Source: Moniliella sp. 'wahieum' (taxonomy: Eukaryota). From it: DNA of 64,000 nucleotides. Of this stretch, positions 1-54,286 are shown in pieces (position 1 is the first letter of the stretch; every line of letters starts with the position of its first letter). The notes beneath the pieces are model-generated. The model searched no databases and was not told the DNA's origin. It saw nothing but the letters and a program-made list of their open reading frames with translations. The stretch lies in contig RSEE01000049.1 of assembly GCA_003971905.1 (NCBI GenBank), positions 310,001-374,000 on the forward strand. Reading direction: 5' to 3'. The translations under genes were made by a program, and so were the position numbers.

Positions 1-1077
1 CCGTGCATGTCCAACAGTTGGAAAGAAGGTCAGGGACTTCGCGAGTGAAGCTTGAAGCTAGTGGCTTGAAGCGTGAAGGTAGCACGAAGCCTAAGTGAGA
101 AAAGTGACCTAGTGACCAGAGAGTGGAGAGAGGTGGCGAAGGGAAGCATGAAAGCCCGCACGCTGCCATACGGATAAGTCCGAGAATTCGATGGGCACCA
201 GGCCAATGTGCGATGCGCCACCAAAGGCATGGCGGACGAGAGGAGCGTGAGGCCTGGGGGAGCCCATCCTTCCCTCGACCTCATCGATCTCATCAGTAGC
301 CAACTAGTCAATGGCAACGTGGTGGCGGCATGCCAGAGCCGACCAGGACAGGCCGAACCGGCCCCCAGCCAAAAAGCCTATATCATGACCTGGTCCAGCC
401 TGCGCTTGTCACATGTCACGCGTGATTCATTGGCTGGCTCCGCTCTGTCGTCACGCGTCACGAGTCACGCGTCACGCGTCATCGAGTGAGTTACGCGCTA
501 CGCTCAGCCAGGACTACCCGCCTGCCCCCCGTCGTCCTCCGCGGCTTCCCCCGCTCCGCCCTCGCGCTGACCTTCGACAGCCTGCTCGGTACTCAGGCCT
601 CCTCCGGCTCCCCATCCAATCCATTCCCTCCCTGCGTCGCACAGCATCACCCATCACGCACCACCCGCACGCATCCCTCACCCCACCGCGTATGATGTAA
701 CCCCATCCCATCCATCTCCCCCTCCGCTTCCCCCTGCCAACGTCCGTGCGCCCAGCCGATTGCGTCAGGAAGATCGTCAAGCGCTCTTGCGCGGCCAACG
801 TGCGACGGGGAACGGCTACCGGCTAACTACGCTCCACGCGCCAACACTGGGCCCGTGCAGCCATTCCGTCGCAGGCCTCAGGGCGCTCTTTACTTTCCCA
901 ACTGCACAGCCTCCCCCGCCCTCTCCCCCCAGCAGACCGTGCACGAGCCATGGACTGTATATAATCCCCCCGCCCGTCGTCCTTTTCCCACATCTCTTTC
1001 CCCCCACCCACCAGATCTTCTGGCACCTCCCTTTTCCAACTTTCTCTCTTCCGTTTCTTCTAGACAACACTTCAACC

Positions 1078-2893: not shown

Positions 2894-4106
2894 TGATGAA
2901 TGATTGTTGATCGGTATCAAGCGGGTGCGATCGGACAACGAATCAGTGTTGCGAAGGGGAATGATGAATGAGAGTGAGCTGCATAGTGAGCACCACAAGC
3001 GTCCGAACGGGGAGGGTGTAGGGGTTGAATAAACCGGAGTTTCATCGCCACCCGCACCACCCATATCTTCTCCCAGGAGTGCGTATGCACCGGCACAGGC
3101 GAGCAAGTCACACTTATCGTTACTTGCCACACACCAAGAGGGTACAATCAGTGATCCCCCTCATCGGCCTCGTCGATCATATGGCCATTCTCGTGACACG
3201 CGAGTGGCCACGGAGAAGCGAAGGTCGGCGGTGGAGGTGGGTGCCTGGCGTGGGCATGACGCTCGGGAGCATGAGCGAAGCGGCGCGCATCAAAAAATAG
3301 CCGAGCGCTCAGGCTGCGGCGAGCTGAGTCAGTGTGCTGAGTGTGCTGATAGGGTTATGGTGGCCGATGATGCCAAGGGTGATTGATGACTCGATGACTA
3401 GGTTTAAGCTGTAAGCCTAACCAGGCGCCTTTGAACTTTGCTTATCGATTCCCACTACTCGGTTCTGATCTTCTGGCTTGGCTGCCGATCGCAAAAAAAG
3501 ACTGCGCATGGGTATTGGCACAGGGGGAGAGGATTAGGCAGGCGCTCAGCGGCCCAAGCCAATGCCCGGTGGCACTGTCAGGCGCAGACTGGGCAGATGC
3601 ACGGATGCGCAATCGCAGCTGCGGCCAAAAGAAAGACAACAGCCAACGAAACCGCATGGTCCGCTCCTCCGAACGCCCGCCCGCTGCGTGCGCTGTCTGC
3701 TCGCGCCGATCCCCCCAGGCATGGGGCCAGTGGGGCTGCGTGCACCCTGGGCCCCCGATGCATGATGCATCCTGCATGCCGCCCAGCCAGCACCAGGTGA
3801 GTCACCCCGAGGCACTGCCCAGCCCCTGGCCGCCCCCTTGCCGTAGCCGCCGCAGAGCCTGAAACGCACAGCGCTGTTACATGTTATCGATTATCGGTTA
3901 CCGGTTACCGGCCGACCAATTAACGTCAGCATTGTCGATCGATTATCGCTTGTCGCTTCCTCGGTTCATTACCCATTCCTTGTCAAGCACCTCGGCTTTC
4001 CTCGTAACCCCCATCCCACCTCGCCGCCCCCCGCCTGCCACCCACGTTGAGGCCGCCGTTTGCCTTCCGTGTGCCCTCCCGCCACCACCACCTTGCCCTG
4101 CTTGCC

Positions 4107-6076
4107 ATGGCCCAGCTCACCTCCCTGCTTGGCCTCGTCGCTCTCGCAGCCGCCGCCGTGTCGGCGCAGTTTGTGCCTGCGCCGGCCAACCTGACCACCA
4201 AGCTCGGCTTTGCCAACGTCAGTGTGCATTACAAGCAGGTGCCTGCTGGCATCTGCGAGCTGCGCGACGACGTCAAGTCCTATTCCGGCTTTGCCGAGGT
4301 CAGCCCCGGGCAAAACATCTTCTTCTGGTTCTTTGAGGCGCGCACCACCGATCCCAAGCAGGCCGAGCTTGCGGTCTGGATCAATGGCGGACCCGGCAGT
4401 TCCTCCGAGATTGGGTTGTTCCAGGAGCTTGGGCCGTGCCGCGTGCTGCCCAACGGCACGCTCGTCAACAACCCCCACTCGTACTCCGAGGTGGCCAACA
4501 TGCTCTTTATTGACCAGCCAATCTCTACTGGCTTTTCCTTTTCCGACCCCACCCGGGCTACATCAGCTCGACTGGCAACCTGATCACCCTGCCGTCGGAA
4601 GAGTGCCCCGACTATGCCCAGGCCCTCGGCACCTGCGGTACCTACTCGTCGCCCAATGTCCTCACCTCGCCCAACTCGACCGAGGCCGCCGCGTCCGACT
4701 TTTACCTTGCTCTTCAGGGCTTCCTGGGTGCCTTTCCCGAGTACAAGCGCGACCACTTCCACTTTACAACCGAGAGCTATGGCGGGCATTATGGGCCGGT
4801 CTTTTCCCATTACGTCCAGGAGCAGGCCAAGGCCAACGTGTCCGGTCACACTCCGCTTACGGTCAAGACGCTGACCATTGGGAATGGTTGGTATGACCCG
4901 GTGCTGCAGTACGAGGCCTACTACCTCTTTGCCAAGGACAATTTTTACTTTGGCACCAGCCTGTACAACACCTCTTCCCTCTCTCAGCTCGAGAACATTG
5001 TGTATGGCAAAGGCAACTGTCTCGACCAAATTCGGCAGTGTTACAAGATTGGCACGCCCGAAGTGTGCTCGGTTGCGGACAGCTTTTGCGCCAACGAAGT
5101 GGAGAATTTCTTTGATGTGTGTATCGGGCCGCGACGAGGTAAGCCTTTTTTTCTTTGCTTTTCTCCACTGTTTTTTTTTCCCGTTTTGCTCTGCTCCCCA
5201 CACCTCCAATGTGGGACTAGGAAGACTGACTGATGTGTAACTTCCCACCAGTACGATGCGCGTGAGCTGATGCCCGACCCGTTCCCCTACGAGGCCTACG
5301 TCGACTACCTCAACCAGCCCCACGTGCAGACAGCGTTGGGTGTGTACACGAACTTTTCCGAGTCGTCGACGGTAGTAGGCAACGCGTTTAGTGCGACGGG
5401 CGACGATGGGCGGGAATCAGGTACGATCCAAGATGTGCGTTCGCTTTTGGAGGAGGGGGGTGTACGTGTCGATGCTGTTGGGCGATGCAGACTACAATTG
5501 TGGTTGGTACGGCGGGTTTGGGGTGGCCAACAAGCTGAATGCGTCGGGATGGAGTCGTGCTGGCTTTGCCAACGTGTCCACCAGCGATGGTGTGGTGCAT
5601 GGGGAGACGAGGCAGACGGGCACGTATGCGTTTACTCGGGTCTTTTACTCGGGTCACGAAATCCCCTTTTACCAACCGCTCTTGGCGCTCACCCTGTTCA
5701 ACCGTACCATCAGGGCGTGTCTCTTGCGGATGGCAAAGTGGACGTCCTGCACAACTCGTCCTACCTCACCACCGGCCCTACCTCACCCACCTTCTTCGAG
5801 GGCAACAGTACGGTCCAGTGGAACGTTACGTCCCCCGATGCGACGTACAACACCACCACTGGCGCGCCCAATCCGGTCCCAGCATCGGACTCTTCTTCCT
5901 CCTCTTCTTCTTCTTCTTCTGCCGGGGCGGCGCGGCGCGCAGCAGCCGTGTTGCTGGACACCGAGACGCCCATGCTGCGCAAGAACAAGAAGAGCTTGAT
6001 GCCCAAGTTTGAGGCTCTTCTACGCACCCGCTCAGGCAGGGCGTACCCGCCACCGATGCTGATGCCTCGGGCGTAA
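4107..6076 (+). CDS. Secreted serine carboxypeptidase (peptidase S10, carboxypeptidase S1-like)
   Basis: Signal peptide MAQLTSLLGLVALAAAAVSA. Motifs WINGGPGSSS, FIDQP, catalytic TESYGGHY, IGNGW, GDADYNC, SGHEIP. Intron 5139-5251. Several 1-nt frameshifts. Confidence 0.93.
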
Positions 6077-6927
6077 AGTAAACGGCAAGAGACTAATGTT
6101 TGCGAGGGGACGAATCTCACCGTGGGCCAATGGGCCAATGGGCCAATATTAGGCCAGTGGGCCAGACTGATGCACTTTCTCTGCGTCGCAGGAACGTTGG
6201 CACGGCACGTTGAGCGTTCGAGCATGAGCGTTCAACTGTGGACTGTGAGTGTTGGGGAGCGGCTAGTCCTTCTTTTGATATTAATGGCATTTGATGGTAT
6301 TGGATGGTATGTGTACTGCTGGTGGTGGGGTTGGTTGATGGGGTAAGAGGGAGACCGAGCAATGGGTTTAGGGTAACAAGGGGGCAAGGCAAGGCAGGGT
6401 AGGGCAGGGCAGGCTATTTTCCCGTTCGCTTTATGGTGCCCCCCCAACCACCTATACCCGTATTTACTGTTGGTCTATCCACATGGCACGGGACTTTGTT
6501 CCACTCAGTTTGCTCTTTTCTTTGCTTTCATGTTAGTTGCCCAGCGGACTTGTGCATGTTGTGGGACAAAGGAGGAAAGTGCCAGCCCCGGCGCTAGGTA
6601 GCATTGAAGCAGTACATGTACTTCCCGTCCAAGCCAGGCTTATAGTGCTTGATCAGCTTGATCAGCTCGACCAGACCCAGCTCAACTTCACATGACAACT
6701 CACAACTGCGCATTCCTGTACGGCCCTGGCGAGCGGGAAGCAGCAAGCTACGTAGCTATGTGTACGGCAGACAAGCCAGGCAAGCAGAGACCAATGGATG
6801 CATCAGTGGGTTAAGGGAGAGTGCTGAACACATTTTGCATGCTGCATTTTTTGGGTGGTGGGCAAAGGGCAAGCACTGCAGGCACGACCAGCAAGTCCAG
6901 ATCCAGAGCAAGGAAGCGAAACTCCTA

Positions 6928-12003: not shown

Positions 12004-15000
12004 GGTGGGGGCTAGGGAGAAGGGCGGGCTCCACGCGGGGCGTGGGGTCCCAGACGGTGGCAGCGGGGGGGCGGCAGTGGAGGGAGGCTGCCGGGGGGGG
12101 AAGGCGCCACGGAGGATGGAGCTGGCGGGGCCCAAGAACGGCGGTGGCGGTGGATGGGATGGGAGGGGGAGGGATGGATGCCGACGGGTGAGAACAGCCG
12201 AGTACGTTTTGGACGCAGCGTCAGCGCCGCTGAGCTCAGCCAGGCGTCTGCCGGGCGGGACAAGCCGGGTGCGTTCCGCCCACACTGGCGCTGTGCTGCG
12301 GGCGGCGCCGTCCTTCCTTCTTTCTCTGCGGGCGTCGAGAAGACTTGCAACCCTACTGCTGCGCGTGGCGGCCGAGCGCAGCTCTGGCAGGCCGAGTGGC
12401 ACGTGTCTTGAAGCGGCCACCCGCCCCAGTCTTCCTTTTTTCTCGGCCGGGCCCGGCAAGAAGACCAAGTATTGGAGGAAGTACCTCTCGTATGCGCAGT
12501 CGGCCTACTAAGCACGGGGAGGGTAGCTGACTACATGACTCCCAAGAACGAAAAACAACGTCCAACGAACAAAGCATGCGCACTGACGTGTCTTGCGACC
12601 ATCGGAGGCGAGCCAGTTGTGGGTCCGTCGTAGAGAGGGATCTCCACGCGTGGATCCCTCAGGCCGAGGCCTGACGCTTAATTGCCGGCCCTCACTCAAA
12701 TCCTCAGACCGCATGAGGTTGAAGTCATATCGTATTTACCGCGGCGATATGAGATCGCGATAGCGTTCTCTATAGTTGAGGACGTGTTTGCAGCTGTCAT
12801 GGAAGAGCTTTAGGGTCCGACACAGAGGGACACTGCAACTGTGGCAGCTCGACAGCTCGTCACCATCATAAGCGCAGGAATGGTCTGCAGTGGGCGTAAT
12901 GCTCTCGTCGTATGGCGTGTCGGACAGAGTAGAAGCAAACGTCGTGCTTGGACGCCGACGAGAAGGAGCCCACACAGCATCAACTCAGGCACAGAGAAAG
13001 AGATGGTTCTGGCGAACTGTGAAGATGCCATACCAGGAGACAGGGTGTCCTGTCGCATACGTCGTCTCTCACTTTCTCGGCCTTGACATCGGCGGGGTTA
13101 GCGATACGTTAAACCCATCAGCAACCTTGCCTCGAGGCCCGATGACTTCGTTATGCGCCGCAATGGCGGCCGGACCGAATGGTTGGACAAGGGCTTTAAT
13201 TCACGACAGACGAGTGCCAAGAACCGAGGAACACCAACTATTTCATCAACACAGAAAGAAGCGTGCGGTCGAAGAGAGCGTGGCGATAATGACGGGGTCG
13301 GGCACAGCTTCTGTCTAATGCTTGTTAATAAGCCTGCGGCTCGTATGAATGTGGCCTTGAAAAGCAACTGGTGCGTACGGGTGGATGCTGACGACGCGCG
13401 ACTCCTAAATATGCATCCACGCGATGAACGGGGAAGGGTTGGGATTGTCTGAGATTTGTTGATGGCAGGCATCTGCAGCGGCGGCGTCATCATTGGAGAA
13501 CTGGATATCATGGCGTGGAACAAGCCTGGGGGATGGCGGAGAGATTGATGAGCAGTGTGACATCATCAAGTCACCAACATCCCCAGACGTTTGAGCCGGA
13601 GTATTAGAGGTGCGGGGAACACACCAGGTTCTGGCATCTTTTGGCCGGGGCGAGTATAGTAGGATGAAAATATTGAATGCCGACCGAAAACTGGGATTGA
13701 GATGACGGCGACGAACGAATGCGAGCTGTAATACGGGCGTAGTATGGTGGCGAGAGATGCAGGCCCGTATAGACAGAGTCGGGATGGCGGCGCAGCGCAC
13801 AGATGCGCTGAGGTTGGTTGGATAGGAGGGGGGTGATGGCGGGGTGCCTGGAATTGCGGACCCCCCCCCCCCCCCCGGGGGCTTGACGGTCTTACTTGTT
13901 GGGGCGGTGGAGAAATATATAGGCCGGTTGTACGAACCAAGGGTGTTGAGTCACCGCGGGTGGCTCGTGTGTTTTGACCAACGCCACTTCAGTCCCTCAC
14001 CTATAATAGGCCGCCTGAGTTTCGTTGTTTTCTCGCTTCTGTTTTTGTTCTACAGCCTAGATCCTGGGGCAACTGCCTGCTTGATGTTTCTCTGTAGGCG
14101 TTGCTGGTTGGCTTACGACCACCACCACCAGTGCGATTGCTTCACTCTCGAGGACCATCAGGCCTTAAGACTCTCCAAATCTCACGAAGGCGGGGTGGGG
14201 CATACATATAGACGTATCACTGGTGGGCATCTGTGTGACCCGACGCAGTCAAGCTTCAAGCGCTAGTTTCAAGCTTCACTTGAGATGGTGACTAGGAAGA
14301 AAATCATGACTTGAACAGGACGGTAAATGAACACCTGCTATGCATCTCTAAGTGAATATAATACGGACAAGAGAGAGTATACTAAGATAGTGAGTACACG
14401 TTCTGAGAGTACTGTGGTACTGAATGGAGCACACGGAGTAGGGAGTCCTAGTGAGACTAGGGAGGGAGTACAGAGAACTGATGCAGCCACCCGAAGAGGC
14501 CACAGAGGGCCGGAGAACAGAAACGATGCGGGGGGCTGGGGAAGGCGCTGCCACACGGGAGAGAAAACAGCGACGTGCCGGTCATCGGTGGCGTGATTGA
14601 ATCGTGTGGAGGCGAAGCGGTGGCGTCATTGCGGGGTGTGGAAATACTGTGGGGCAAAATTCAAACAGGACAGGCAGAGTGTGTAGCAGTGCGAGGAACA
14701 TCGGGCATGCGGGCAGACGCCTGCTTTCGCTTGTGACTAGCCTGTTCGCTCTTGCTTTCGCATTTGCTTTCTGGGGCCATCGATGATCATGCATTGTTGA
14801 TCGAGTTAATCGAATCGGACGTTTACGACGGGAAAGCATCGACTGTCGCTTGGCGATTGTCCCCGTCTCCACCAGCAGGAGCATGGACTGGTGGCATGGA
14901 CCTAAGGCACGCCATCGATCATCGGCCATCCATGCACGGACCTCTTCCGCAGCAGCCTGAGGCTTCCCTGAAGCACCTTATACTATCTCGGTATTAGTTT

Positions 15001-15499
15001 GTAAGTAGTCGCGGTACGATACTAAAAGTCTGTATAGTCGCGGCGGTCGGCAGTCGGTACTCGGTAGGAGCTGGTGGTCGCTACGTACTACGCGGTGACG
15101 GTCACCGGTGGTAGTCTTGGGCTCTGTCCTCCAGGCAGCCCTGGGTAGCCTCAGACCTCAGGGTCTTAGACCTCATCGATCATCGGCCTCATCCGTTATC
15201 CATTATCGACCTCGGGCTGAGATCCCATCGATCAATACAATGCAGGCATCGTCTGGGACCTGTGTGAGCCAGCCCAACACCCATCTCGTGCTTCTCCGGG
15301 GCAGCGGTGGCGGTGGAGCAGTTCGAAGTGATTTGTCTGGCAGAAGCCAAGCCATGCAGGGTGGCAAGGATAAAAGATCTAAATGTATGCCCGCACAGTT
15401 TGCACGAAACCGTTCCCGTCTCGCCTCTGCATCTGCTTTTGCCTTTTTCTGCTTCCTCCTCTCCATCCTGCAGAGTCGGAAAAGCCACCCATTCGCAGC

Positions 15500-17290
15500 A
15501 TGCCCACCTTCCCCTGGTCGCGCGCCTCCTCCGCGTCCCCGGACGCGCCCATCCCAGCGTCGCCCCACACGGACGAAAAGTTGCGCCCCACATCGGCCGA
15601 CGTTGCGTCCCTCTCGGGTACGGGAGAACCCATCGAGCCCAACCGGGCCTTATCCCGCCTCAAGCCCGACGGTACCTACCGCGTCACCTTCTACCGCTCC
15701 GTGTTTTGGAACATTACAGTGCTTGGTATCTGCTCCTTCTTGGCCCCGGTCTCTGGGGCGGGCTTTCTCTCCTTGGTGCTGGAGGTGGGATGGACATTAG
15801 CACGGTCAATGCGTCCAACTCGATCACGTACGTACTTTTACTCCCCCCTCGCCCCCCTCGTGGCGAACAGAGCCTGCGAAGAAAGGTGAGGCCTGACAAA
15901 CCCCTCTGTTTTGGATGGGTGTAGGTTTTGTTTGATGGTAGTCACCTGTTTCCTCCAGCCTGCTCTGGTCAAGATTACCAACATCAAGTTTGCCCTGATT
16001 TTTGGTACGTGCGGATACGCGCCTTATGCCGCTGGGCTCTACGTTCTTTCCAAGGACAACAAGAGCTGGCTCGTGATCCTGGGTGCCACCCTTTGCGGTA
16101 TCACAGCCGGTACGTTTTGGGCGACAGAGGGGGCGTTGGTGATGGGCTACCCGGAGCGCAAGAAGCAGGTCGGTACCTTTCGTATTGGTTATGCTACCGG
16201 GTAGCGGCCAGGTGCTTTCGGGGCTCATCTCACTAGGTTTGAACCACAATTCGCAAGCGGCCTCGGGTGGTGCCATCTCGTTCACCACATACAAGGTCTT
16301 TATTGCGCTGCAAGCAGCTGGGCCCTTGGCGGGATGCCTGCCTCGATGCCAAAGAATGTGCAACGCATAGATGGGACGCCAGTTGAGCTCGCTACCACTC
16401 CACCCCTGGGTGGAAATTCGGTTGATGGCCAAAACGCTAGTACAACCCAAAGTCTTGCTCCTCTTGCCCATGATTTGGACCTCGACGTTTTTCCGAGTCG
16501 CTCTGTGGCACCTTCAATGCCACGTACTTTACGGTGCGCAGCCGTGCCCTCGCCTCGCTCATGGGGGCGGTGGTGTCGATGATTTCAAACTTGCTGCTGG
16601 GCGTGCTATTGGACTACCGACCATGGACTATCAACCGCCGTGCCAAGGTAGGCTTTGGGTTGGTGTATGGATGCGCGATGGGGTACTGGATTTACGCAAT
16701 TGTTGTCATGAACCAGTTCCACAAGCACCATGCCCCTCACTACGATTGGGTCGATGGTAGCTCCACTTGGGGCAAAGGATTTGGCGTCTACCTTATGCTA
16801 GAGATCCTCTTCTCGACCATGTATGAGAGTACGTTCTGCACCCCCCCTCCTCCCTCGCCGCTCCTCCTTCCTTTTTATTCCTGAAGCAAATGGTGCTAAC
16901 AGATTCTTGCATTTGGCAACAGTGAATTACTGGATTGCTTCGGGCTTGTCGGACAACCCAGCGGATCTGATCCGGCTCACTGCCATCATCCGTGGTGTCG
17001 AATCGGCGGGCCAGGCCGTGTCGTATGGGCTCAACTCGACTGGGTTCCGTCTTGACGGCGTGGCAGGGCTCAACATGGCCCTGTTGGCAGCAAGCATGCC
17101 GCTTTGTTATGGGGTGGTGCACAAGCTCGGCGTCAAGCCGTCGGGAGAAAAGATCCACGAGTTTGCCATGTACGCCTCGGACGACCAGAGAGCCAAGCTT
17201 CTTTCGGAACGGGTGCCGCAAGCTGCTGCCGACGAGAAGGGTGACCAACTTTCCAAAGACCAGGCATTTGCGGAGGAGCCCCACTTGTAG
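15500..17290 (+). CDS. UNC-93-like MFS membrane transporter
   Basis: FYRSVFWNITVLGICSFLAP..LGAGG, GTCGYAPYAAGLY, GITAGTFWATEGALVMGYPE, IIRGVESAGQAVSYGLNS. Multiple TM segments. Introns at about 15828-15924 and 16828-16922. Confidence 0.88.
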
Positions 17291-26949: not shown

Positions 26950-29900
26950 GGCCAATCGCCGTTGATCGATGATCATCGACCACGCGCACGTACTAGCCAT
27001 GTCCGCGGACCTGATGCCCACGGCCTCACAGCGCTGGAAGGCTTCTATCACAATTGGCACCACCTTGGTATCCAATTGTGGCACCAGCACTCAGCCATGG
27101 CTCAGCGGCCTCAGGGCCTCAGCGCCTCCCCTCCAATTCTGCCGGTATCCGCGATATCCCCTACAGGGTGGATATCATCTTCTCTGACGCTTGACGTCGA
27201 GAAGGGGTGGGCATATGTAGTCGCCGTTCGGGCAGCGACTAGTGACTAGCAACGCGTGACGAGCTAGTGATGCATGAGGGCGACTAGGTGACTCTGCAAG
27301 TGACCGGTGAGTGCCGGTGATCCGGCCGGTGACCCGGCGACCACGACGCCGATCATCGATCAGTCTGCAAGGATTAATGATCGTAATCCCTACCGACTAA
27401 TACACACGCTCAACTTCAACCAACGCTTAGCGCTTAGGCTAAGCGCTAAGCGCTAAAAATGAATTAATAATTAAATTTTTATTTTTATCTTCGTGATCAT
27501 CCATCATCCATCACCGATCGTGCTGGCGTACGCGTTGTTTGTGTACAGGTAGGTGTACAAGTGTACTTGTGTACCTGTGGGGGAAACCTCGATCACGGAA
27601 CCAGTATCACGTCCCCTCAGGCCTCAGGCCTCACCCGCCTGAGGCCTCGGACCAGGCACCGAGGCCTCATGAGATCTGAGATCTCCCTATTTGCTACTGT
27701 AGAGAGGAGGGTAAAAAAGGTGGGTCCCTGTCATGCAGGTCATGCAGCTCGTCAAATTCATTTCTACTTGGTCTCCTCGTCTACTCATAAAAAAATGTGG
27801 GAAACGCGTCTGGTCTGCCACTACTGCCACTGACGACGTAAGGCGCTCAGCGCTCACCAGTGAGTAGTGAGTACTCTCAGCGCGGCCAGCCCAGGATATC
27901 GGCGGTATGATTTTGCCTCTCCACTGGCGTGGAACGGTGGAACGGGTGGCAAAGGTGGCGAGCAGGCAGAGAGGAAGCCCCAGTAAACCGGGCCGTAAGC
28001 CCGGTGGTCCCCTAGTGCCGTATTCCTTTAAATTTGCACAAAACTCCCACACTGCACTTCTGTTGTGGTTTTAGACAAAGAAACGTTTTCAGCTCCCTCA
28101 CAGGCTAGTCTCTCTACTACCCTCCCAGCTCTCACATCTCCTTTTTCTCGTTCTTTACGCGGTCTCTAATATAGTATTCGTTTCCCTTCAAACGGGGCTT
28201 GCTGTTGACAACTTTTATTGAGGCCTTCTCGCACATTTTCCCTCTTCTTTGCCTTAAGTTGTCCGGCGGCTGTGTTGCTATCATAGTCCCGTGGGTCACT
28301 AGCTGCACTGTTGCACTCGTGTGCACTCTCTTCTCAATTTTCTCACATTCTCAGAGATGATCACATCTCTCCTCCTTCAGCTTCATGCTTCACGCGTCAC
28401 GCGCCAACACGGATCACTATATTGATCCTATCTATCCTATCTCCAATGCTCAGTGCGCTCAGTGACCAGTGCTCCTCAGTGCTCAGTGACTAGTGAGCAG
28501 TGCTCAGTACTCAGTAACTCAGTACTCACGCTCACGGTGCACAGACAAAACCATACATACGGTTCTAGTTCCTTTTCCCGAAAGACCTCTCTGAAGGTCC
28601 CAGCTTCACCTATCTTTATCTTTAATTACCATATGGCAGGACCCATCAAAACGTGCCAACAACCCTACTGCCCCCCGACCTATACGCACGAACGTAGCAG
28701 AGCCTATATGGAGAAAAGTGGAGAGTGCGGGGCAACCGATAACCGTTAACCGGTAGCCGGTAATTCGGGTAAGCACAATGCTATAATCGACAAAGGACCC
28801 TACTGTGTTGCATGTTATACCACCGTCCCAACAGGTAACAGTACTATAGTGTAGTCACTCGCCGTCACTAGTCACTGTCACTGTCATGTCCATGTCATTG
28901 GAATATCTTATGTGCTGAGCCTCAGCGCTGTGAGGCGTGAGGTCACGCCTAAGGGCGTGAGGTCACGCCTAAGGGCGTGAGGAGGCCTGAGCATGAGGCC
29001 AGGCAACCACGTTACGTTCACTGTTTACTATAGTCATTTATTCAGTAGATAGCGTGAAAAGGGCAGTGGACAACTGTTTGATGTGTTATCAATAACCAGT
29101 GGGACCGTTACTGATGGATGTTTTGCCTACTACTCAGGGGTAGATGACAGGCGATAGATGTATAGTGGCAGGGAGATAGGTTGATGGTGGGGAAGATAGA
29201 GCACGTAAAGCTTAAAGCCTTCTTCAGCTACAAAAGTATATAGACGTTCCATGCTATGTATCCATCCGGCTTGAGATCCTTCTGAGAGCTTGAAGCTTGA
29301 TATCCTTGAAGCTTGAAGCTCAAGCTTTTTGAGACTTGAGACTTGAGAGTCCATCGGAAGAAGCGAAAGAGCGTGTCATCCTGCCAATTAAATGATGTCA
29401 AGGCCCACGATGACTCGATGACAAGCATACGCCGGACTAACTGAGCCTGAGCGCACAAGTTTATATGTACAACGCGTCGGGTCATAGTGAACTTTTGTTG
29501 GATGTGTGGTAACAGCACGGTATATGTGGCAACTTATACTAGCGACGTCTTATTCACTCCCCTATGGAGACCTCAATGGATGCTGAGGCGCTGAGGGCGC
29601 TGAGGCTAGTAGTGAAGCAAAGATGGATAGGATAGTTGCGTAGGCGATCGATTGCGAGGGCGAAAGATGAGCGCTCAGGCTGAGCATTGGTAGTCGGAGG
29701 CACCTACATAGAGGAGAAAATTATTGGTCGCTGAGCTGAGGCGCTGAGGCTCAGCGCTCACCGGCACCGTGAGCGGCCACCAGTCTCTCTGCTCCCAAGT
29801 CACTGGCTCGGATACTTACGTGACGCGCTTGACGCGTGACGCGTATCCACGCGCTCGCCGCATCAAATGCCGCATTGGATCCCATGTCACAGTCGGCGTA

Positions 29901-30050
29901 GTCTCCGCGGAGTCCCGGGGGTTAATCACTCACTACTCAGCTAATCACTCTCGTCACTAGTCACGTACTAGTCACTACGCCACTTCGGTATAGTCACTAA
30001 TGACCAACGAGATCGATGAAAGACCAACAGAAAAGTGCTCCGCGAGAGCC
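26950..30050. repeat. Gene-free tract dense in TNA-centred 7-bp periodic palindromic micro-repeats
   Basis: e.g. TTA gcgc TTA..TAA gcgc TAA gcgc TAA (27427-27456), TCA ggcc TCA ggcc TCA (27617-27633), TGA agct TGA (about 29291-29316). Confidence 0.85.
27682..28015 (+). mobile_element. Non-autonomous Helitron-like element, copy D
   Basis: The 3' ~90 bp is homologous to 30770-30881 (GCGTGGAACGGTGGAACGG..). Hairpin ACCGGGC-CGTAA-GCCCGGT (27987-28005), then CTAG|T. The 5' end at A|TCTCCCTAT is tentative. Confidence 0.6.
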
Positions 30051-30137
30051 TGCTCGCTCAGGCCATTCCAGACCGGTTCCTTATAAAGACGGTGCTAAGA
30101 TGTTCCTGGTAACCGCAATACTATATCCAGTCGTCCA

Positions 30138-30881
30138 TCTCTCTATGCTAACCATATCATTGACAGAGCTTAAGGCTAGGACAAAGAAGCGCACAACGCC
30201 TAAACCGACCCGTTCATCTTGCGTATGCTGCTTGGTAGCGCCAACCCCGCTTAAGGAACCAGTAGGGGAATCGCCAGGAGATCAGGACCCTCTGGTACCC
30301 GCCATCCGTTCCCATACCCGAGGTAGCGCGTGTGGATACGGATGAACGTGGTAGGCATCCGAGCGAGAAACCATTTCCATTGAGAGTCAGTACTCAATAG
30401 TCAAAACCTGCCAGTGCACAAGCATCTTTCCCGCTGTCTTGGTGCCGTAGTATCCTCGCGTCGTCAAGACCAGGGGGAAAAACGGCTCTTGGGTGCGTCA
30501 AGTGCCCAGGACCTGCCGTCCATCCTCCCGAATCTGGTCCCGGTTCCGCTCGACGCACTTGCGCAAGTTGAGCGTGAGGCCTGGCGTGTCGTCTTCCAAA
30601 ATCTCCGCATGTCTTGTATAGGTACGGCATCACCAGGTGCCCCGGCGGCAGCTCCTTTTCCAACTTCTCCAGTGTTGGCCGCACCGCGAGATGAAGAAGA
30701 AAAAGGGGGCGAGGGGATCGCCCTGCGAACGCTATCTACCGATATAACGCCCCAGCGTGGAAGGGTTTCAGCGTGGAACGGTGGAACGGTGGACCGGTGG
30801 CACGGTGGTTACGGTTGCGACGCAGCACCAAGCTGGGGCGACGCCCCAGCTGACCGGGCCGTAGGCCCGATGGTCTCCTCG
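30138..30881 (+). mobile_element. Non-autonomous Helitron-like element, copy B (longest)
   Basis: A|TCTCTCTAT 5' end. About 340 bp co-linear with 2512-2860. Subterminal hairpins AGCTGGGGCG-A-CGCCCCAGCT (30831-30851) and CGGGCC-GTA-GGCCCG (30855-30869). End CTCG|T. Confidence 0.78.
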
Positions 30882-30882
30882 T

Positions 30883-31135
30883 GAGCTTTTAAGGCCGGGA
30901 CGAAGAAACGCTGCGCTTAAAACCGAGCCGCTCATCCGGCGTGTGTTGCTTGTTGGCGCCAAATCCGTTTAATAGAGGGAACTATTAGGAGAGTCGTCAC
31001 AGCAAATGAGGACCCTCTGGTGCCCCCCCAACCGTTCCCACACCCGAGGTAACAGCGCGTGTGGATACATATGAACATGGTAGACATCCGAGCAGTGGTG
31101 AACCACAGCTCCATTGAGACTCTGTATAGTCAAAG
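30883..31135 (+). mobile_element. Degenerate partial copy C of the same Helitron-like family, abutting copy B
   Basis: Co-linear with 30166-30410 (e.g. TCATCCGGCGTGTG, CCGTTCCCA.ACCCGAGGT, GCGCGTGTGGATAC, ATAGTCAAA). Lacks the first ~28 bp. Confidence 0.7.
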
Positions 31136-32240
31136 ACTGGTATAAAAATGAACATGGTCAGTCGTCCATTTACTGCTAATACCGGCTGTGTATAGTGTCA
31201 TTCCAGCATCTTCTTCAAATCGTGAGCTCCATGTGGTCTTCGATCCTGCTGCTGAGAGACGGGAATGGAAACACCCCGGGACGGATCACAACTGTGATTT
31301 TATGTCTGTGTTTTACCGGTTACCGGGGCTCCGAGGGCCGTTCTCGATCAACGAACACCAAGATCACCTCTCTAAGCCATACTGATAGACTTGGTCTTCT
31401 CAGATCTCATCCGAGGAATTGACCGCGCTGAGAGGCTGAGCGCTGCGCTGAGTGCGCTGAGTCCGGATTCGATCATGTGTTGTTCGATCGGGCCCCAGAC
31501 CAGTATGGCGCCCGACGCCATGATGCATGATCCCTGCCTCTTCTTTTCTCTGCTGGGCCTATAGTCCCACATCCTGTCTCTGAAAAACTGCCACCGCATC
31601 ACAGCTTTGCGATCCAACAGACACGCTGGCAGACGTAGGCCAATACTGTGCAGTGCCATAGAAACCTTTTGCTTTGTGCGATGTATATAGTGCTGACTGT
31701 GCACGGGTGAAGAGCGAAGCTCCATCTACTGCAGGAAGAGGCTGAGGGGCGGGACCAGATGAGTATATAGAAGGAGGCGGTGGGGTTTGCTTTCTTGAAA
31801 GTGCCGGATTGAAGCTGTACTAATGAGATGTGAGCGCGAGCTGTGTGGGTGGTTACACTTTATTTTGGCTGTGTGTAAACAAAACGTGGCTGGGCTCTCC
31901 GCCGAGCGGGTGTACTTTAGAGTCTCTCGGGCGCTGGCGAGCTTGATGAGCTTGATGGAACTGGTAAAATGAGAGGGATTGTGGGGTTTTTACATTAGGC
32001 CGAGGCTGAGTGCGGCGAAGGCTTAATTTCTGAGACCGGGAGGCGCTGGGGCAGGCACAGCGCCAGTCTGCGCCCGCTCGCATACCGATGCGCGCTGGCC
32101 AGTGGCCTCGTGCTGGCGATTTAACCACTCCACCATGGAAGGCCGGTGGGCTGCGAAAACTTTCTTGTCTCCACCCTGACCCCACTCTCTGCAACCACAT
32201 CATCGTCCATCATCCACCGCGCCCAGGGCTCCATCGCCTT

Positions 32241-35827: not shown

Positions 35828-37529
35828 ATGGTTCTCGTTCTCTTTGAGACGGCTGGTGCGTACGAGCCATCGCATCTGTGTTTTCAGGAGCTGACCACCG
35901 GACCGTTCAGTTGGCTTTTGTCTCTTCCAGCTCGCATCCCCCACGTCCGCTATCAAGAGCGGTGACCTGGCCAAGAAACTCAAGTCAGCCGACGATGCTG
36001 CCAGCCTGATTAAGCTCCAGGCCATTCATCGCTTCACCTCTACTGCCGAGGCGGTGCAGGATGCGTCTGACATTGGCGAGGGCAAGGTTTCCAAGTCGCT
36101 CAAGAAGTTCCTGACGGCCGAGATCAAGGACAAGGCGGCCAAAGGTGGACCAGAGCAGCTGGTTGTGATCGACCCCAAGCTGGGTGGAGCAATTAGCAAA
36201 AAAGTGGGGATCGACGTGTACTCGGACTCGTCGGTCATGGACTTGTACCGTGGTATTCGGGAGCACCTAGCTAGTCTTCTTTCGGCTTCGGGTGCAGCCG
36301 ATGGCTCGGGCGCCGTCGACTCCCGGGACATCTCGACCATGGCGCTGGGTCTGTCGCACAGCTTGTCGCGGTATAAGCTCAAGTTCAGCCCCGACAAGGT
36401 GGACACGATGATTGTTCAGGCCATTGGTCTGCTGGACGACTTGGACAAGGAAGTCAACATTTATGCCATGCGTGTCAAGGAATGGTACGGCTGGCACTTC
36501 CCTGAGATGGGCAAGATTGTGAATGACAATGTTGCCTATGCCAAGTCGATTCGCGCCATGGGATTCCGTACCAACGCGCATTCGACTGACTTTTCTGAGA
36601 TTCTCCCTACTGAGATCGAAGAGACTCTCAAGGCCGCTGCTGAGATCTCGATGGGCACAGAAATCTCCGAGTCGGATCTGGCTCACATCCAAGAACTTGC
36701 CGAGCAAGTCATTAACATCTCAGCCTACCGTGCACAGCTGTACAGCTACCTCCAACAACGCATGTCACACATTGCGCCTAACCTTACCGCCCTTGTAGGG
36801 GAGTTGGTCGGGCACGTCTCATTTCCCACGCAGGTTCGCTGATGAACTTGGCGAAGGCGCCAGCTTCAACGATCCAGATCCTTGGTGCCGAGAAGGCCCT
36901 CTTCCGTGCCCTCAAGACAAAGCACGACACGCCAAAGTATGGTCTGTTGTACCACGCCTCGCTTGTGGGACAAGCACCCAACAAGCTGAAGGGTAAGATG
37001 GCGCGTATGGTGGCGACCAAGACGGCGCTGTCGGTGCGCCTTGATGCTCTGGCGGATGATCAGACCGACGAAGCGCATGCTACATCGACCGGCAATGACA
37101 ACACGGGCCATGCATCAATTGGTATTGAAGCCCGCAATGTTCTGGAACACCGCCTCCACGCTCTTGAGAGCGGAAACTTCTCGGGCGCTCTCAAGAAGGA
37201 TCGGTCTTTTGGTGCGGCCAAGCAGAGCGCATACCAGCCTGAACTTTCCTCTGCCCCACGGACGTACAACGCGGGTGTTGACGCTCCAGTCACGCGCCGG
37301 CTGAGGAGGAGAAGAAGCTTTCCAAGGAGGAGCGGAAGGCAGCCAAAAAGGCTGCGAAGAAGGCAGCTAAGGAAGGAACGTGTCGATGGCTACGTCCGAG
37401 GCGGACGAGAGCAAGAAGCTTTCTAAGGAGGAACGCAAGGCCGCTAAGAAGGCCAAGAAGCGTGCCGCCGAGGAGGATGGGGATGAGAGCAAGACGGAGA
37501 AAAAGAAGAAGAGCAAGCACAGCGCTTGA
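35828..37529 (+). CDS. NOP58: Nucleolar protein 58 (box C/D snoRNP)
   Basis: MVLVLFET start. [100 protein letters not shown]-rich tail. Short intron near 35856-35910. Confidence 0.97.
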
Positions 37530-44244: not shown

Positions 44245-44324
44245 GGCCTCTTGGCGCAGCGGTAGCGCGTGAGATTCAGTTCCTGGCTTCCTCAAGGTCA
44301 TCCGTTCAAATCGGGTAGGGGTCA
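44245..44324 (+). tRNA. tRNA-Trp-like gene with short intron; anticodon as written is CAG (CCA if one C was dropped)
   Basis: Acceptor stem GGCCTCT/AGGGGTC+A. D-arm GCGC-AGCGGTA-GCGC. T-arm ATCCG-TTCAAAT-CGGGT. Followed by a T6 Pol III terminator. The body resembles eukaryotic tRNA-Trp. Confidence 0.85.
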
Positions 44325-46179
44325 TCTTTTTTGCGTCCTCCCAAATTTCTTGTTTACCACTCTTCTGCTTAAATAGAGCCGTCTTCGGGCGTCCCCCGGC
44401 CTTTGAGTCAACGATACTCAGCATTTCATTGTCCACCATTCATAACACTAGCCATGAGTAAGCATACATAATAGTCACGTTCAACATTGGTTTTCTCTCA
44501 GTCTGTTGTGGTGACGACGGCACGCTTGCAGTGTGCTATATATGCCAACCGCCAAACCAAAAACTGCCAAGATGATGCCAAAAGATGATGAAAACAGAGT
44601 CTCATCGCTATGTCTGACACACCGGTTGGGAAAGTGAGAAATATACATAACACATATAACTGATGGAGCAATAATGGAGGGAATAGGCTGCTGAAGCGAG
44701 CCGTCTTGAACCACACGCAGTACTCTCTGATTTTTGTCTTTTCTGACCTCTCTCGGTTAGTCAAGACAGATGGATTGTCGAAGATCGTTCCGTCTGAATC
44801 GCTATAACCACACGCAGCTTGCATGATGCTCAGAAACTTCTTTCACGGTCTATAATGGTCGAAATATGGGCACAGCCTTTTGTTCCCTCCGTCGAACAAC
44901 AAAAACATCCCACAAGCCTTCTCTTTTCTTTCTTGTGGGCACACAACTACATGCTATTCGCACACAGATGGCACCATGGACACACTACAATACTACCGTG
45001 GCACGACTTGATGGCTCATCGCTCATCGGCTGCACGATTCGAGCTCCTTCATCAACAGTGCTTCGGTAACTATAGTAACTCTTCACATAATTTTGGATGT
45101 CGTGCGGTGGAAAATGAATAATGGTGCCACCATGGAACTAAGAATTGAACGCAGGACTGAACGCAGGGCTGCTAATGAACGTAAAACTGTGGATGAAGTT
45201 TGCACCAATGGAAACTGAGTGCACTAGGTTCACTATGAGGCCGGGAGGATGGAGAGTATAACACTCATAGATATATTTTGCTCATAAGAACTGTGTGAAA
45301 GAATCGGCTGAGGGCAGTGCACATGCAGGATGATCGATGATCTAACTGAGCGCTTTAACAATTTTATACTCGCAAATCCTCATTCACGCCGTGGATACAG
45401 ATTGTGGTGTGACGAGGAGACCACCAACAACGAAAGAGAACAGATAGAACAGAGGGATAAAGGGAAGTAGCTTGTGCGGCAGCGCGTGGCATCGAGAATG
45501 GCCCCGTGTTTGAGACCACGGTGCAAAAGAACAAGTCGTCCGTTCGCCATGCAGAGAGAGAGTACGGTGGTATGGTCCCCGTTAGCGGATAAGATATTCC
45601 AGCGATGTGGCCGATATAGCCATGGAAGTGTTGCCACATCATGCATCACTCCTCACAATCTCCTAAAGGAAAGGCCGATGGCCAGAAATGGGATTCATCA
45701 GTTCACTATCAAGTATCCGAGTACCGACGATGACCACTCATTCAGTACAGGCAACTCCTCATGCTCTTAGTCGTCTTTCTACTCCCTGCCTAGTCCACCA
45801 GCTCCCGTCCTCAGCTCTTCGTTCCTCAGTCCTCCCAGTCCGTGTGTGTCTTCCCCGTGCCACGTCGAAGCCCAGCTCAGTTCACCCGCTTGTGATACTG
45901 CCTACAGCCACGCCCCCAGTCCCAGTCAGTTCCAGTTTAGCAGCGCAGGTCCTCCGCTGCCTCATCCCTTTCCTGTACCACGAATGCTTCAGACGCGCTA
46001 CTGCGCCCAAGCCGGTGCTACGCAGCTTTGTCACATGCACCGCATCTGCACAGCCGCCTCTTTCTGCTATACGCCGAGAGGCCTTTTCTAGTCCCTAGCT
46101 CCGCTCGGATCCACAAATCAGCTCAAGCGCATAACTACCGTGAGTCGACCTTCCGTAATTAGGGGATTGAACCCCGTAC

Positions 46180-49100
46180 AACTATTTCCTGGGTGAGCGG
46201 TGAGCGCTGAGCCTCAGCCCCCTGGCGGGGGGCCCGCCCGTGACATTTTACCCGATTCACCCAGTGATGGAGACAGTTGGATGGGTGGAAGGTAGACACA
46301 CGGGACACGTCAAAACGCACCACGGATGGTGAGTTGTGTAGACGTATACTTGGTGGCGCGAGGGGCCGAGGTTGTGATGAATGCTGGGTGCTGGGGGATG
46401 GTTGGTGGTAGTGCTAAGCATGTTACATGATGTCTTTCATTATGCTACGTTGCTCCTGCCAACCGTGACGCGCTGCATATCCTCGGCTAAAGCCAACGCC
46501 GATGAGCAAGCGGCGCAGGGAAGCCCTGACCGTGATCGGTGGCCGGACTGGGTACTGGTTTGTGATGTGCGACATGTGACCGGTGATCTCAGGCAGAGAA
46601 CTGTGAGGTAGTGAGACAAGGCTCACTCAGGTCCAACGTCCGGCTCGAGCAGGTACCTACCCTCGGACCAACCCTCAGGCCCTGAGACTCCTCAGGCCTG
46701 AGGCCCGATGCATGATGTCTGATGCACCTGATGATACAAATGTAAACATCCTGTGCCTGAGTACCTGAATACACCCTATCGAGTGGGGCAAAAGGATCTC
46801 TGTGCTGCTTTGCTCCGTCGCTCAGTATACTGAACTCAGTATGCCGGTCCTTCGGCGCATTTTCGGGATTTCCAGGTTCAAGTGAAGCTTAGGGTTATTA
46901 ATGTGGACAGAAAGTGCTAGCGAGTCACCCGGTCGACCCGAACACCCCGGTCACCGGTCACCGCGCCCGAACAGCCAAAGTGACGTGTGACGTGTGACGT
47001 GTGATCGATTATCGATTCTCGAGATTATCACCGGCACCAATCATCTGAACGATGTCGATGTTCCTTTCGTAATAGGTAGCCTCTCCGGCCTCAGACTGGG
47101 GCCTCAGGCCCCTCAGGCTACCTCAGAGTGAGCTTCAGGCTGAAGCTTGAGTAGCGCTGAACGCCTGAGCCTAAGCCAGCTGGCTAGCTCAAGCTCAAGG
47201 GTCAAAAGCTCTCAGGTCAGAGCCAGCTTCAAGCTCTCAGATCTCGCCAGCTTCAAGCCATCAGATCTCGCCAGCTTCAAGCGCCGCTGTCACGGAAATC
47301 ATTAATCAAGCTCAAGCTCAAGTGGCCTCTTCCTGAGATGTCACATGTCACATAGGAAGCGGCCCCTTCCGGAGACGTCACATGCTTACTTCCGGTGCTG
47401 TGGAACAGGCCTATACAGTTCAAGTGCGGCACTAGAGTGACGAGGTATGTGACCATGTGACGCAGGTGACTTTAGTGACTCGTGCAACGAGCACCTACCC
47501 AATACCGTCCTCATTTTCAGGAGCGTCACATAACTCCTTACCGGGTTACATATTCATGTCACATGTCACCATGTCACCGGTCCCGCCGGCTTTCCGACAA
47601 AAAAAACCACTCTCTGGTCTAAGATCTGATGCAGATTATCAACAGTTTCCAGATCTCAGAGGCCTGTACATACACGTTATATGGCCATCTATACCGTGAA
47701 AAACGTCCAAAGTTCGTAAGTGACTAGTAGTGACATCAAGAGGATGATCTGGTGTCGCATCTACTCTCTTGCCCGCTCTGCGCGCACCAAGCTCCGAGAG
47801 ATGTCGTATCTCAGCCTGAAAGCGCTAAAGTTCACCTGCTCAGCCACTCAGCTACGTCCGGTTCGCTCATCAGTGCTACTTCCGTCAGCTTATTGCTAAC
47901 AGAATGATTTGGTGCAGGGTACACACGGGTGTCTAGACAGTTGTGGGTGCGAAGCGTGAAGCTGTGAGGCTGTAGAGCTTCAAGTGAAGGCACATGTTGC
48001 AGCATAGAGTGAGTATACGGACGAGATGATCACTACACGGACTCCGTGGACGTATAGCGTATACGCCTGAGGTTTTTACATTATCCATCAAGAGAAAATG
48101 ACACATAAGATGTTAACGTGATCCACGGTGTGTGGACTTTCATCCCATTGGGGGACCTGGCAAGGGGATGGTCTAATTCTGCTCAACGTTCGATCGGCGA
48201 ATATACTTTCAGCCCCGATGGAGAGCTTCATAAGAAGTGCCCTAGTGCTCTATCCAGGAACATTATGACGAGTCCCCCACAAACGATAGCCAAAGCTCGT
48301 TCATGTTGCCGTTACGTATTACTTGTTACACTCAATGAAAAAAAGGTGATGAAAGAGGATCATCCTCCCGAGGTTGTGTGGAGACGGTTACATGTTACAT
48401 GTAACCGATTATACGACCGCTGTGTTGATGGCACCATGGGAGAGTGTGACATGTCAGTCTCAGTAAGTATATCCCTCATCCGAGTCTCACCAAAGTATCG
48501 GGGATACTACAGTTACAGCTGTGCGCGCCCCTGAGGCTCAGGGCGCTCAGGCCTCAGGCCTGATGGGCCTGATCGATGTCTGATGATCGATGAACCTTGA
48601 GCGGCTGAGCGCTGAGCCTCAGCTACACTCGGCCGTTGCACTGATGCGTGGCACAATACTCTCAAAGGATTAAGGACTGGAGGATGCAATAATATATGCG
48701 GAAAAATCGGAAGAACCCCCTAAATCAAAGGTTCATGCTCACATGCGTCATGAAGGGAAGCCTAGCGAAGCTCGAAGCTTGAAGCCCCCTGAGGCCCTCA
48801 CCTGAGGCCTGGCCTGAGTTACGAAGCTTAAGGCCTGAGGCTGGAAGCTTGAAGCTTAAAGTGACTGAATATAGGCCAGGTGATACATGATGCATGACGT
48901 CTTGTGGGGGCCCGAGGCAGTGGAAAAGATCTGTGGGGCTGAGGCGCTGCGTCGCTTATGAGGCTCTGGATGAGCGCTCAGCTCAGGCTGAGCCCTGAAG
49001 GTGAGGGGCCTGCGCTCAGACCCAGGGATCAAGCACTGTGTACTGATGCGTTGAAGCTCTCTCTGAGAGATCTGAGATCTGTGAGATCTGTGAGATCTGT

Positions 49101-49900
49101 GAGATCTGAGATCTGAGATCTGAGAGCTAATACTGTATAAGGCCAGGCTCAGACCCTCAGGCCCCGGCCTCAGGTGAGGTCTCAGTACCTCAGTACTCAA
49201 GTTCCCAATATCAATACAACTGTAAACAGTACGTACTCAGGTACCCACGGCAGCCACTAAGTACTAATGCCACTAGTTACTAGTTCCTGGTGCTCCGCGC
49301 CATGGCGAAGTCACTTCGATCACTTGTGATCAATGATCAGCTTGTTTTTGCTGGATGGTGCTTTTCATTAACGTTTAACGTTTACTAGTTACTGGTTTTA
49401 CCGGTTACTTGAAGAAGGGGAAATATCAATGAGGCCTGAGGCCCGAGGCCGCCCGAGGCCGCCTGAGGCCTGAGGGCTTGAGCCTGATAAGGCACCATAT
49501 TTCAGACCTCAGAGGGTGTATAGTACCCTAAGGGCCTCAGTATCAGCCATTCCATACGCATATAATTAATAATTCCTTCAAGCTTCATCTGCTTCAGTTG
49601 TCTGAGGAGCGTGTGCGGTGTGGCCTGCTCGTCAAATCTATACAGCACTATGACACCTTCGGCCGTTTGAGGGGTCTTGGTCTTGACGCATGAAAAGCTT
49701 GAAGCTTGATTAACTTGATCATGATCAACAGCGATCTGTATATCCATCCGGCCCAGTATTAATAGTTGCCATCACAAACGCTACAGGTGGCGGCGTTCAA
49801 CTTGACATGCAAGACCGTCCAATCCCGATAGTTTCGCTCCAGGGCCTCAGGACCTGGCGTGATAGTTCCATATCTGTATCTGTCGGTCAAGTGACATGTG
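46180..49900. repeat. Second gene-free tract dense in TNA-centred 7/9-bp periodic palindromic micro-repeats
   Basis: e.g. TGA cgtg TGA cgtg TGA cgtg TGA tcga TTA tcga (46981-47015), TTA catg TTA catg TAA (48388-48404), TTA acgt TTA acgt TTA ctag TTA (49368-49391). Confidence 0.85.
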
Positions 49901-50066
49901 TTCATCGTGCAGTCTTTGAAGCGGGACGGACGGACCCCATTCGCAGCATATATAAGTAATACCCCTCACACTAAGAAGTGTCCCTGGCTAGAAGCTGCCT
50001 CCTCACAGCAACCACGACCACCCAAAGAGTGTACCCTCCTTTCCATCCTTCTTGGAAGGTTCCTCT

Positions 50067-54061: not shown

Positions 54062-54286
54062 GCTCCATCCGCCATCCCGTGGCGCACGGCACGAAGGTAG
54101 GGGTGGGGGGGGGGGGGGGGGTGGGGGTGGGGGGGGGGGTAGGGTGGTGGAGCGGCCCCGGCAGACAAGCACGGCCGTCGCCCGTCGCTCCGGCTGGAAA
54201 TTACGTCAGGCGCCACGCGGGCGGCTCTGGATGTTGAGTCCGGCCGAGCACTCACGCCGCCAGACGGCTCGCCGCCTACCACTGCC

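Follow-up and report, generated by a model that had tools for sequence, protein, structure and literature searches.

TNA-palindrome-TNA words in non-coding DNA of Moniliella sp. 'wahieum' are flank-templated insertions and probably excision footprints of a cut-and-paste transposon

We analysed a stretch of 64,000 nucleotides from Moniliella sp. 'wahieum' (contig RSEE01000049.1 of assembly GCA_003971905.1, positions 310,001 to 374,000), which we call the window and number from its first base; none of the words, arrays and clusters described below is assigned to a strand. The window carries a fungal gene set. Pfam searches detected split exons for a serine carboxypeptidase (4008–5996), Nop58 (35895–37423), API5, polysaccharide lyase 14, MT-A70, an RRM protein and a protein with a cytochrome b5 domain, whose gene starts with an ATG at 63600. 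The first exon of Nop58 has 72% identity to Exobasidium rhododendri and Ceraceosorus bombacis, 70–71% identity to Tilletia species, and 93% identity to one further protein, which marks the source as a basidiomycete resembling Ustilaginomycotina. ARAGORN reports a single tRNA in the window, an 80-nt tRNA-Leu(CAG) gene at 44245–44324, which is in a low-GC region bordering one of the word-rich stretches described below.

Several kinds of repeat are also present. Tandem repeats of 54 bp (1251–1816) are found within a likely coding region (1198–1809) that is rich in Gly, Ser and Asn; the apparent start of this gene is an ATG at 1078, with an intron early in the gene. A long array of 5/10-bp units (GCTTT-like) at 61863–62415 gives rise to long spurious ORFs on both strands–for example, an AKQSK-repeat 'protein'. 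Two runs about 7 kb apart, one G-rich (about 40 nt, 54096–54137) and the other C-rich (about 30 nt, 61205–61237), were reported as an inverted repeat pair. Lastly, a dispersed repeat of about 350 bp is present in three diverged copies (2512–2864, 30140–30484 and 30889–31134) that are 72–77% identical. It matches nothing in Pfam, Rfam (0 families) or among tRNAs, the one tRNA being located away from it, and inverted ends are not obvious; we used its copies only as an outgroup to establish the direction of insertions.

Most longer intergenic regions had been predicted, from the letters of the window, to share a word in which two TNA triplets enclose a 4-bp palindrome, repeating every 7 bp. This pattern is real and highly non-random in this window, and the description was correct. 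The words that it quoted are all present: TGAagctTGA from position 46, tgTCAcatgTCAcg at 407–420, and five TCA triplets in 7-bp steps at 451–481. Across the whole window the spacer is palindromic in 92 of 230 TNA-N4-TNA words, and in 76 of the 146 in which N is identical on both sides (the 76 are called same-N words below). As background we made 100 dinucleotide shuffles of the whole window and 100 more in 500-nt blocks, which yielded 2.08 ± 1.44 (maximum 6) and 2.27 ± 1.40 (maximum 7) same-N words, respectively. The claimed enrichment of palindromic spacers therefore holds, with 76 same-N words observed against about 2 per shuffle.

The enrichment is specific to TNA and to one spacer length. 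With a 4-bp spacer, the palindromic fraction is 31/55 for TCA, 27/58 for TGA, 12/19 for TTA and 6/14 for TAA (43–63%), and 103/1860 (5.5%) for the remaining 60 triplets pooled. The effect is limited to the 4-bp spacer, with palindromes in only 1 of 70 pairs at spacer 6 and 6 of 40 at spacer 2. Events occur at 2.0–4.3 per 100 sites, alike for all four TNA triplets, and 14 different 4-bp palindromes occur out of a possible 16, compared with 11 listed by the original prediction, which had rightly stressed the variety of spacers. Pairs of TNA triplets with the same N number 146 at lag 7, 77 at lag 14 and 70 at lag 9, with 31–66 at the other lags from 3 to 30. Of the two autocorrelation peaks that had been expected, the one at lag 7 is thus clear; the one at lag 9 is weak as a raw count, yet 13 of its 70 pairs are strictly structured, as described below. 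Among the 92 palindromic words, N is identical in 76 (direct repeats), complementary in 9 and otherwise different in 7. The nine words with complementary N (TNA-palindrome-TN'A) are perfect 10-bp palindromes, such as TCACGCGTGA, and one of them is at 416–425. They outnumber the other mixed-N classes by a factor of only about two, and they could be either footprints with five P-nucleotides or chance matches.

To divide the window into coding and non-coding DNA we used codon usage, trained on the Pfam-supported exons, in place of a GC3 filter, which was too weak to recognise coding ORFs. The resulting mask is heuristic and conservative and misses some exons, and its non-coding remainder pools introns with intergenic DNA. 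None of the 76 same-N words is in the 18,420 bases that this mask marks as likely coding, and all 76 are in the remaining 45,580 bases, in agreement with the prediction that the motif is absent from coding exons. Two hot non-coding regions stand out. The first (26963–31530) contains 26 of the 76 same-N words, together with events of period 8 or 9 at 27111, 28450, 28511, 29411, 29584, 29592, 29737 and 31449. The second (45331–49709) contains 28 of the 76, of which 19 are within 48000–49999, together with period-8 or period-9 events at 47104, 47450, 47566, 48538, 49064, 49082, 49091 and 49182. TNA-palindrome-TNA words also form a small group at 14158–15896, with four same-N members, and a cluster of five at 62802–63109, of which three are same-N.

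The sequence of the spacer follows a rule that involves its flanks. We grouped the 76 words into 68 arrays, of which 62 have two TNA triplets, four have three and two have four. Under the rule, an ancestral site xy-TNA-cd has two possible outcomes, xy-TNA-y'x'xy-TNA-cd and the mirror image of this, xy-TNA-cdd'c'-TNA-cd. The palindrome therefore consists of one flanking dinucleotide and its own reverse complement, or, put differently, five bases are repeated, and between the copies stands the reverse complement of the outermost two. The outer flanking dinucleotide predicts the half-palindrome in 56 of the 68 arrays, where about 4 per side are expected by chance. The 7-bp period is continued by the left flank only in 24 arrays, by the right flank only in 22, by both in 10 and by neither in 12. 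Position by position, periodic matches are seen in 46 and 41 of the 68 arrays at −1 and −2, and in 39 and 41 at +1 and +2, and they fall to background (21–29 of 68) at ±3 and ±4. That identity should extend past the word by exactly 2 nt, and on one side, is not predicted by simple 7-bp tandem duplication.

The dependence on TNA was recovered by a search that does not presuppose it. The query was any 5-mer that recurs after a 2-base gap filled by the reverse complement of its own final dinucleotide; it had 58 and 61 matches on the two strands, compared with 4.2 in shuffles. The 5-mers begin with T in 83 of the 119 matches and have A in third position in 86 of the 119, so TNA is intrinsic to the process and not imposed by the search.

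Individual sites illustrate the rule. At 46–59 (TGA-agct-TGA-agct), a 7-bp event has produced an agct that is the right flank ag with its reverse complement, and at 407–425 (tg-TCA-catg-TCA) the palindrome is derived from the left flank tg; this second site overlaps TCAcgcgTGA, whose N are complementary and whose 10 bp form a perfect palindrome. The array of five TCA triplets with 7-bp spacing at 449–483 has the spacers cgcg, cgag, cgcg and cgcg, and includes three copies of ACGCGT. Upstream of the serine carboxypeptidase gene, the array TTA-catg-TTA-tcga-TTA-tcgg-TTA-ccgg-TTA-ccgg (3877–3911) can be reduced event by event, with one intervening point mutation. A mixed array at 49062–49123 consists of TGAGATCTG, with a 9-bp period, followed by TGAGATC with a 7-bp period. 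At 28936–28982 we also observed a little over two copies of a 20-bp unit, CGTGAGGTCACGCCTAAGGG, made of TGA, TCA and TAA words, which may be a sequence that was built by such events and later duplicated.

The copies of the dispersed repeat show in which direction the events run. The site GGA-TGA-tcga-TGA-ACG (2719–2734) is 7 bp longer than its paralogs at 30340 (GGATGAACG) and 31070 (TATGAACA), and TCA-gtac-TCA-atag-TCA (30387–30403) is 7 bp longer, with one substitution, than TCA-gtag-TCA in the paralog at 2775. The longer state is thus found in one repeat copy and the shorter state in two, at two places. A third case, seen in one pair of copies, is 9 bp longer: TCA-gg-tcga-TTA-gg (2652–2665), compared with GATCAGGACC at 30280, has duplicated the 7 bp gaTCAgg and added a palindromic tc, with one later C-to-T change. 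Because the paralogous copies have a single TNA where one copy is 7 bp longer, the words are insertions.

To establish how many bases are duplicated, we enumerated junction models in which a left fragment with palindromic bases is followed by palindromic bases and a right fragment. At spacer 4, 40 of the 146 same-N TNA pairs fit y'x'+xy and 38 fit cd+d'c' (other triplets: 21 and 20 of 1857), numbers that are near-equal by strand symmetry alone and hence are no test of the heteroduplex step in the mechanism proposed below. In these 78 of 146 pairs, five bases (TNA plus two) are directly duplicated, as in a target duplication, and the two added bases are the reverse complement of the adjoining flank dinucleotide, as in P-nucleotides. 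At spacer 5, 9 of 59 pairs fit c+y'x'+xy (the period-8 events). Among the 70 pairs at spacer 6, cd+y'x'+xy accounts for 8 and cd+d'c'+xy for 5 (3 and 2 of 2032 for other triplets), where the chance rate is 0.0002. Since these 13 of 70 pairs repeat the full 7-mer with two palindromic bases, all seven bases of xyTNAcd are duplicated. The spacer-6 events, which are rarer than the 7-bp events, also account for the secondary 9-bp period of the original prediction. Examples are ct-TGA-tc-ag-ct-TGA-tc (6650–6664), in which ctTGAtc is duplicated with a palindromic ag between the copies, ct-TGA-tg-ag-ct-TGA-tg (31944–31958), and cc-TCA-tc-ga-cc-TCA-tc (63575–63589), whose end is 11 bp upstream of the ATG at which the gene with the cytochrome b5 domain starts. 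No pair at spacer 8 (0/41) retains both palindromes, a result that is consistent with 3' overhangs and not with filled-in 5' overhangs.

When we ran the rule in reverse and 'peeled' events from the sequence, 63 seven-bp events and 13 nine-bp events came out at TNA, 558 bp in total, compared with 0–8 events for each of the other 15 XNY classes. The original prediction had proposed that a mutational process writes the words and that selection removes them from coding sequence. Both parts of this proposal are supported, because the words are insertions, their spacers are flank-templated, and 0 of 76 are in likely coding sequence; a 7-bp insertion breaks the reading frame, which would explain the loss of such scars from coding sequence.

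A 7-bp duplication combined with flank-templated palindromic bases points to excision of a hairpin-type transposon, and we think that the words are probably the excision footprints of a cut-and-paste DNA transposon located outside the window. The element would integrate at nnTNAnn with a 7-bp staggered cut, producing the occupied site xyTNAcd-[element]-xyTNAcd. On excision, its transposase would leave each flank as a blunt DNA hairpin, which a host nuclease would nick 2 nt 3' of the tip. This would produce a 4-nt 3' overhang, cd-d'c', at the left end and y'x'-xy on the other strand at the right end, with both duplexes recessed to TNA. With no need for trimming or synthesis, each overhang could be ligated directly to the other fragment at its recessed 5' end, so that one strand would read TNA-cdd'c'-TNA and its partner TNA-y'x'xy-TNA. 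Replication or mismatch repair would resolve this heteroduplex into one of two products, each exactly 7 bp longer than the ancestral site. A product 9 bp longer would result if the full copy of the duplication were kept at one end. Each scar would comprise two new TNA sites, and repeated visits would build 7-bp arrays with varying spacers.

We discarded three variants of this scheme. If 3 bp were duplicated and the hairpin formed at TNA, TNA-TN'... junctions would be expected, a class that is not enriched (5/40). Hairpins with TNA as the loop predict either a spacer made of the reverse complements of the left and right flanks or a 2-bp spacer, and neither is found. Filled-in 5' overhangs predict two tandem palindromes at spacer 8, the arrangement that is absent from all 41 pairs.

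We infer the transposon from its scars, because neither a transposon nor a transposase is present within the window. When we searched the window for identical TNA-centred 7-mers separated by 30–8000 bp and having inverted inner ends, there were 0 candidates. No occupied site of the form xyTNAcd-element-xyTNAcd was seen in these 64 kb, and TNA-centred 7-mer pairs 8–200 bp apart in the window have no common inner termini. None of 269 ORFs from the window (150 of at least 128 amino acids, and 119 shorter ones in non-coding regions) has a transposase Pfam domain. Two further observations weigh against reading the words as transposon scars: for footprints, 76 perfect words within about 46 kb would be a very high density, and the palindrome is predicted by neither flank in 12 of the 68 arrays (11 of the 76 pairs).

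The scars in the window come closest to V(D)J coding joints and the footprints of hAT elements. Enzymes of the hAT, Transib, MULE and RAG groups are described, in the excerpted text of PMC5499845, as leaving hairpins on the flanking DNA that may be opened by enzymes of the host, such as Artemis, after which end joining often produces footprints. The footprints of Ac/Ds in Candida and Saccharomyces consist, according to the excerpted text of PMC5873905, of deletions and inserted P-nucleotides that are palindromic, with the complement of the base adjoining the element at the centre of the palindrome. As in the window, footprints of Ac/Ds and other hAT elements keep both target copies and have short flank-templated palindromic additions together with small deletions, the joints being made by end joining (PMC5873905 and PMC5499845, as excerpted). 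The window differs from Ac and other hAT elements in that its duplication is 7 bp long and centred on TNA, not 8 bp, and from Ac/Ds in that its palindromes are even, being centred between two bases, and one type of product is dominant. It also differs from studies of hAT footprints in that the scars are seen at the scale of a genome sequence with no element in view. A nick of the classical Ac type, made one base inside the flank, does not fit even palindromes, which imply that the cut would be flush with the element boundary; together with the 7-bp duplication, they led us to reject an Ac-type hAT element specifically.

RAG and Transib enzymes do cut flush at the element boundary. In V(D)J recombination, blunt flank hairpins are opened 2 nt 3' of the tip to leave a 4-nt 3' overhang, which yields two P-nucleotides and an even palindrome. 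V(D)J, RAG and Transib reactions thus resemble the scars that we propose in having blunt flank hairpins and even palindromes. Unlike the window, V(D)J joints have no target duplication; Transib makes 5-bp duplications, and we found no signal sequences or RAG-like gene in the window. Symmetric targets with a central TNA are known from PIF/Harbinger elements, the IS1031 group of IS5, and Tn10, whose target is NGCTNAGCN. These TNA-targeting DDE elements duplicate 3 bp or 9 bp, and to our knowledge neither flank hairpins nor P-nucleotides have been described for them; they share the central TNA with the window, but a 3-bp duplication model fails here.

Duplications of 7 bp are made in basidiomycetes by hAT7 (in Pucciniomycotina), which groups with fungal hAT elements and plant Ac/Tam3, and by Kyakuja (in Agaricomycotina), according to the excerpted text of PMC12730594. 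Both elements share the 7-bp duplication and the phylum with the window, which contains no copy of either. The supplement of PMC12730594 gives consensus sequences of hAT7 and Kyakuja, and in that supplement the string 'Ustilag' has 0 occurrences and target-site lists are absent. We found no description of a TNA-palindrome grammar in the literature that we searched, from which subscription journals were largely absent. Tentatively, and with appreciably less assurance than for excision footprints in general, we suggest that the transposase may belong to a lineage that is undescribed in Ustilaginomycotina, or be a resident enzyme derived from one, with a flush cut like that of RAG and Transib, a 7-bp stagger at TNA, and V(D)J-like scars that, through very frequent visits, are a major source of new intergenic sequence in this fungal lineage, 7-bp arrays and palindromic hexamers among it.

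The strongest alternative is a host process without a mobile element, in which a nuclease or domesticated transposase makes 7-nt staggered breaks at TNA, and either fill-in with hairpin capping or polymerase snap-back adds the two palindromic bases. The 7-bp duplication, the two palindromic bases and the TNA centre fit this process equally well, the window contains no transposon or transposase, and the very high density and regional clustering of the words could reflect resident activity. We know of no host process of this kind, however, and 64 kb is too small a sample in which to expect a copy of a low-copy element. In addition, a stagger duplication with hairpin-type palindromes is a signature of integration followed by excision, as described in excerpts of PMC5499845 and PMC5873905. 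We consider a host process rather unlikely.

Much less probable is a footprint of PIF/Harbinger type, in which the TNA itself is a 3-bp duplication and the 4-bp palindrome is the last two bases of each inverted terminal repeat, as in Tc3. Such a footprint would account for the direct TNA repeats (76 identical N, against 9 complementary and 7 other), and inverted ends that leave a 2+2 remnant always leave a palindrome; 3-bp duplications are described for canonical Harbinger elements in the excerpted text of PMC12730594. The duplication in the window is, however, 5–7 bp long. The spacer follows from the dinucleotide outside TNA in 56 of 68 arrays, the 14 palindromes are used at similar frequency, and the 13 period-9 and 9 period-8 events duplicate six or seven bases instead of three. 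Because all four TNA triplets are used at similar rates with 14 of the 16 palindromes, the spacer is not a fixed transposon end.

Replication slippage, which would make the words ordinary 7-bp microsatellites or minisatellites, is similarly improbable as their origin. It would explain peaks at lags 7, 14 and 21 and a few arrays with three or four identical units (TGAGATC and TCAGGCC), and slippage could be a secondary expander of arrays that were already seeded. As an origin it is contradicted by the 62 of 68 arrays with only two TNA triplets, by spacers that vary within an array while TNA stays constant, and by the confinement of the effect to TNA. A pure 7-bp duplication (spacer cd+xy) covers only 21 of 146 pairs, and the periodic match ends after 2 nt on one side, the other half of the spacer being a reverse complement. 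The original prediction had already argued, correctly as it turns out, that the words are neither an ordinary microsatellite nor a single transcription factor motif, the second point being borne out by the 14 different palindromes and the free N.

We give equally little credence to a selected cis-regulatory grammar, in which the words would be clusters of transcription factor sites such as the ACGCGT boxes in 449–483. Words are found upstream of genes, the three ACGCGT hexamers in that array would suit such a grammar, and hexamers of the form A-palindrome-T are typical dimer sites. No single factor would accept 14 different palindromes, however; the spacer is set by the adjoining bases, and words present in one paralogous copy are missing from another. 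Individual scars, for example those in 449–483, may have been co-opted secondarily as regulatory sites. An assembly or sequencing artefact is the least likely explanation, since no known sequencing error mode makes such a pattern, and a strand-symmetric, flank-dependent rule, avoidance of coding sequence and differences between diverged repeat copies all argue against it.

If the words are indeed excision footprints, the duplication length (7 bp) and target (TNA) of a transposase that has not been seen would be readable from bare sequence, as would the position at which the host opens hairpins (2 nt). A sizeable share of the insertions in non-coding DNA would be explained, with at least 76 events, totalling 558 bp, in about 46 kb. 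Excision would also provide a de novo route to short tandem arrays and palindromic hexamers (ACGCGT, AAGCTT and AGATCT) beside genes, and arrays and hexamers made from scars are candidate raw material for regulatory evolution. TNA words with a period of 7 or 9 bp should be checked against the flank rule before they are called microsatellites or clusters of binding sites. Finally, if the transposase does belong to an undescribed lineage, the genome would be a natural, readable archive of thousands of hairpin-opening and end-joining events.
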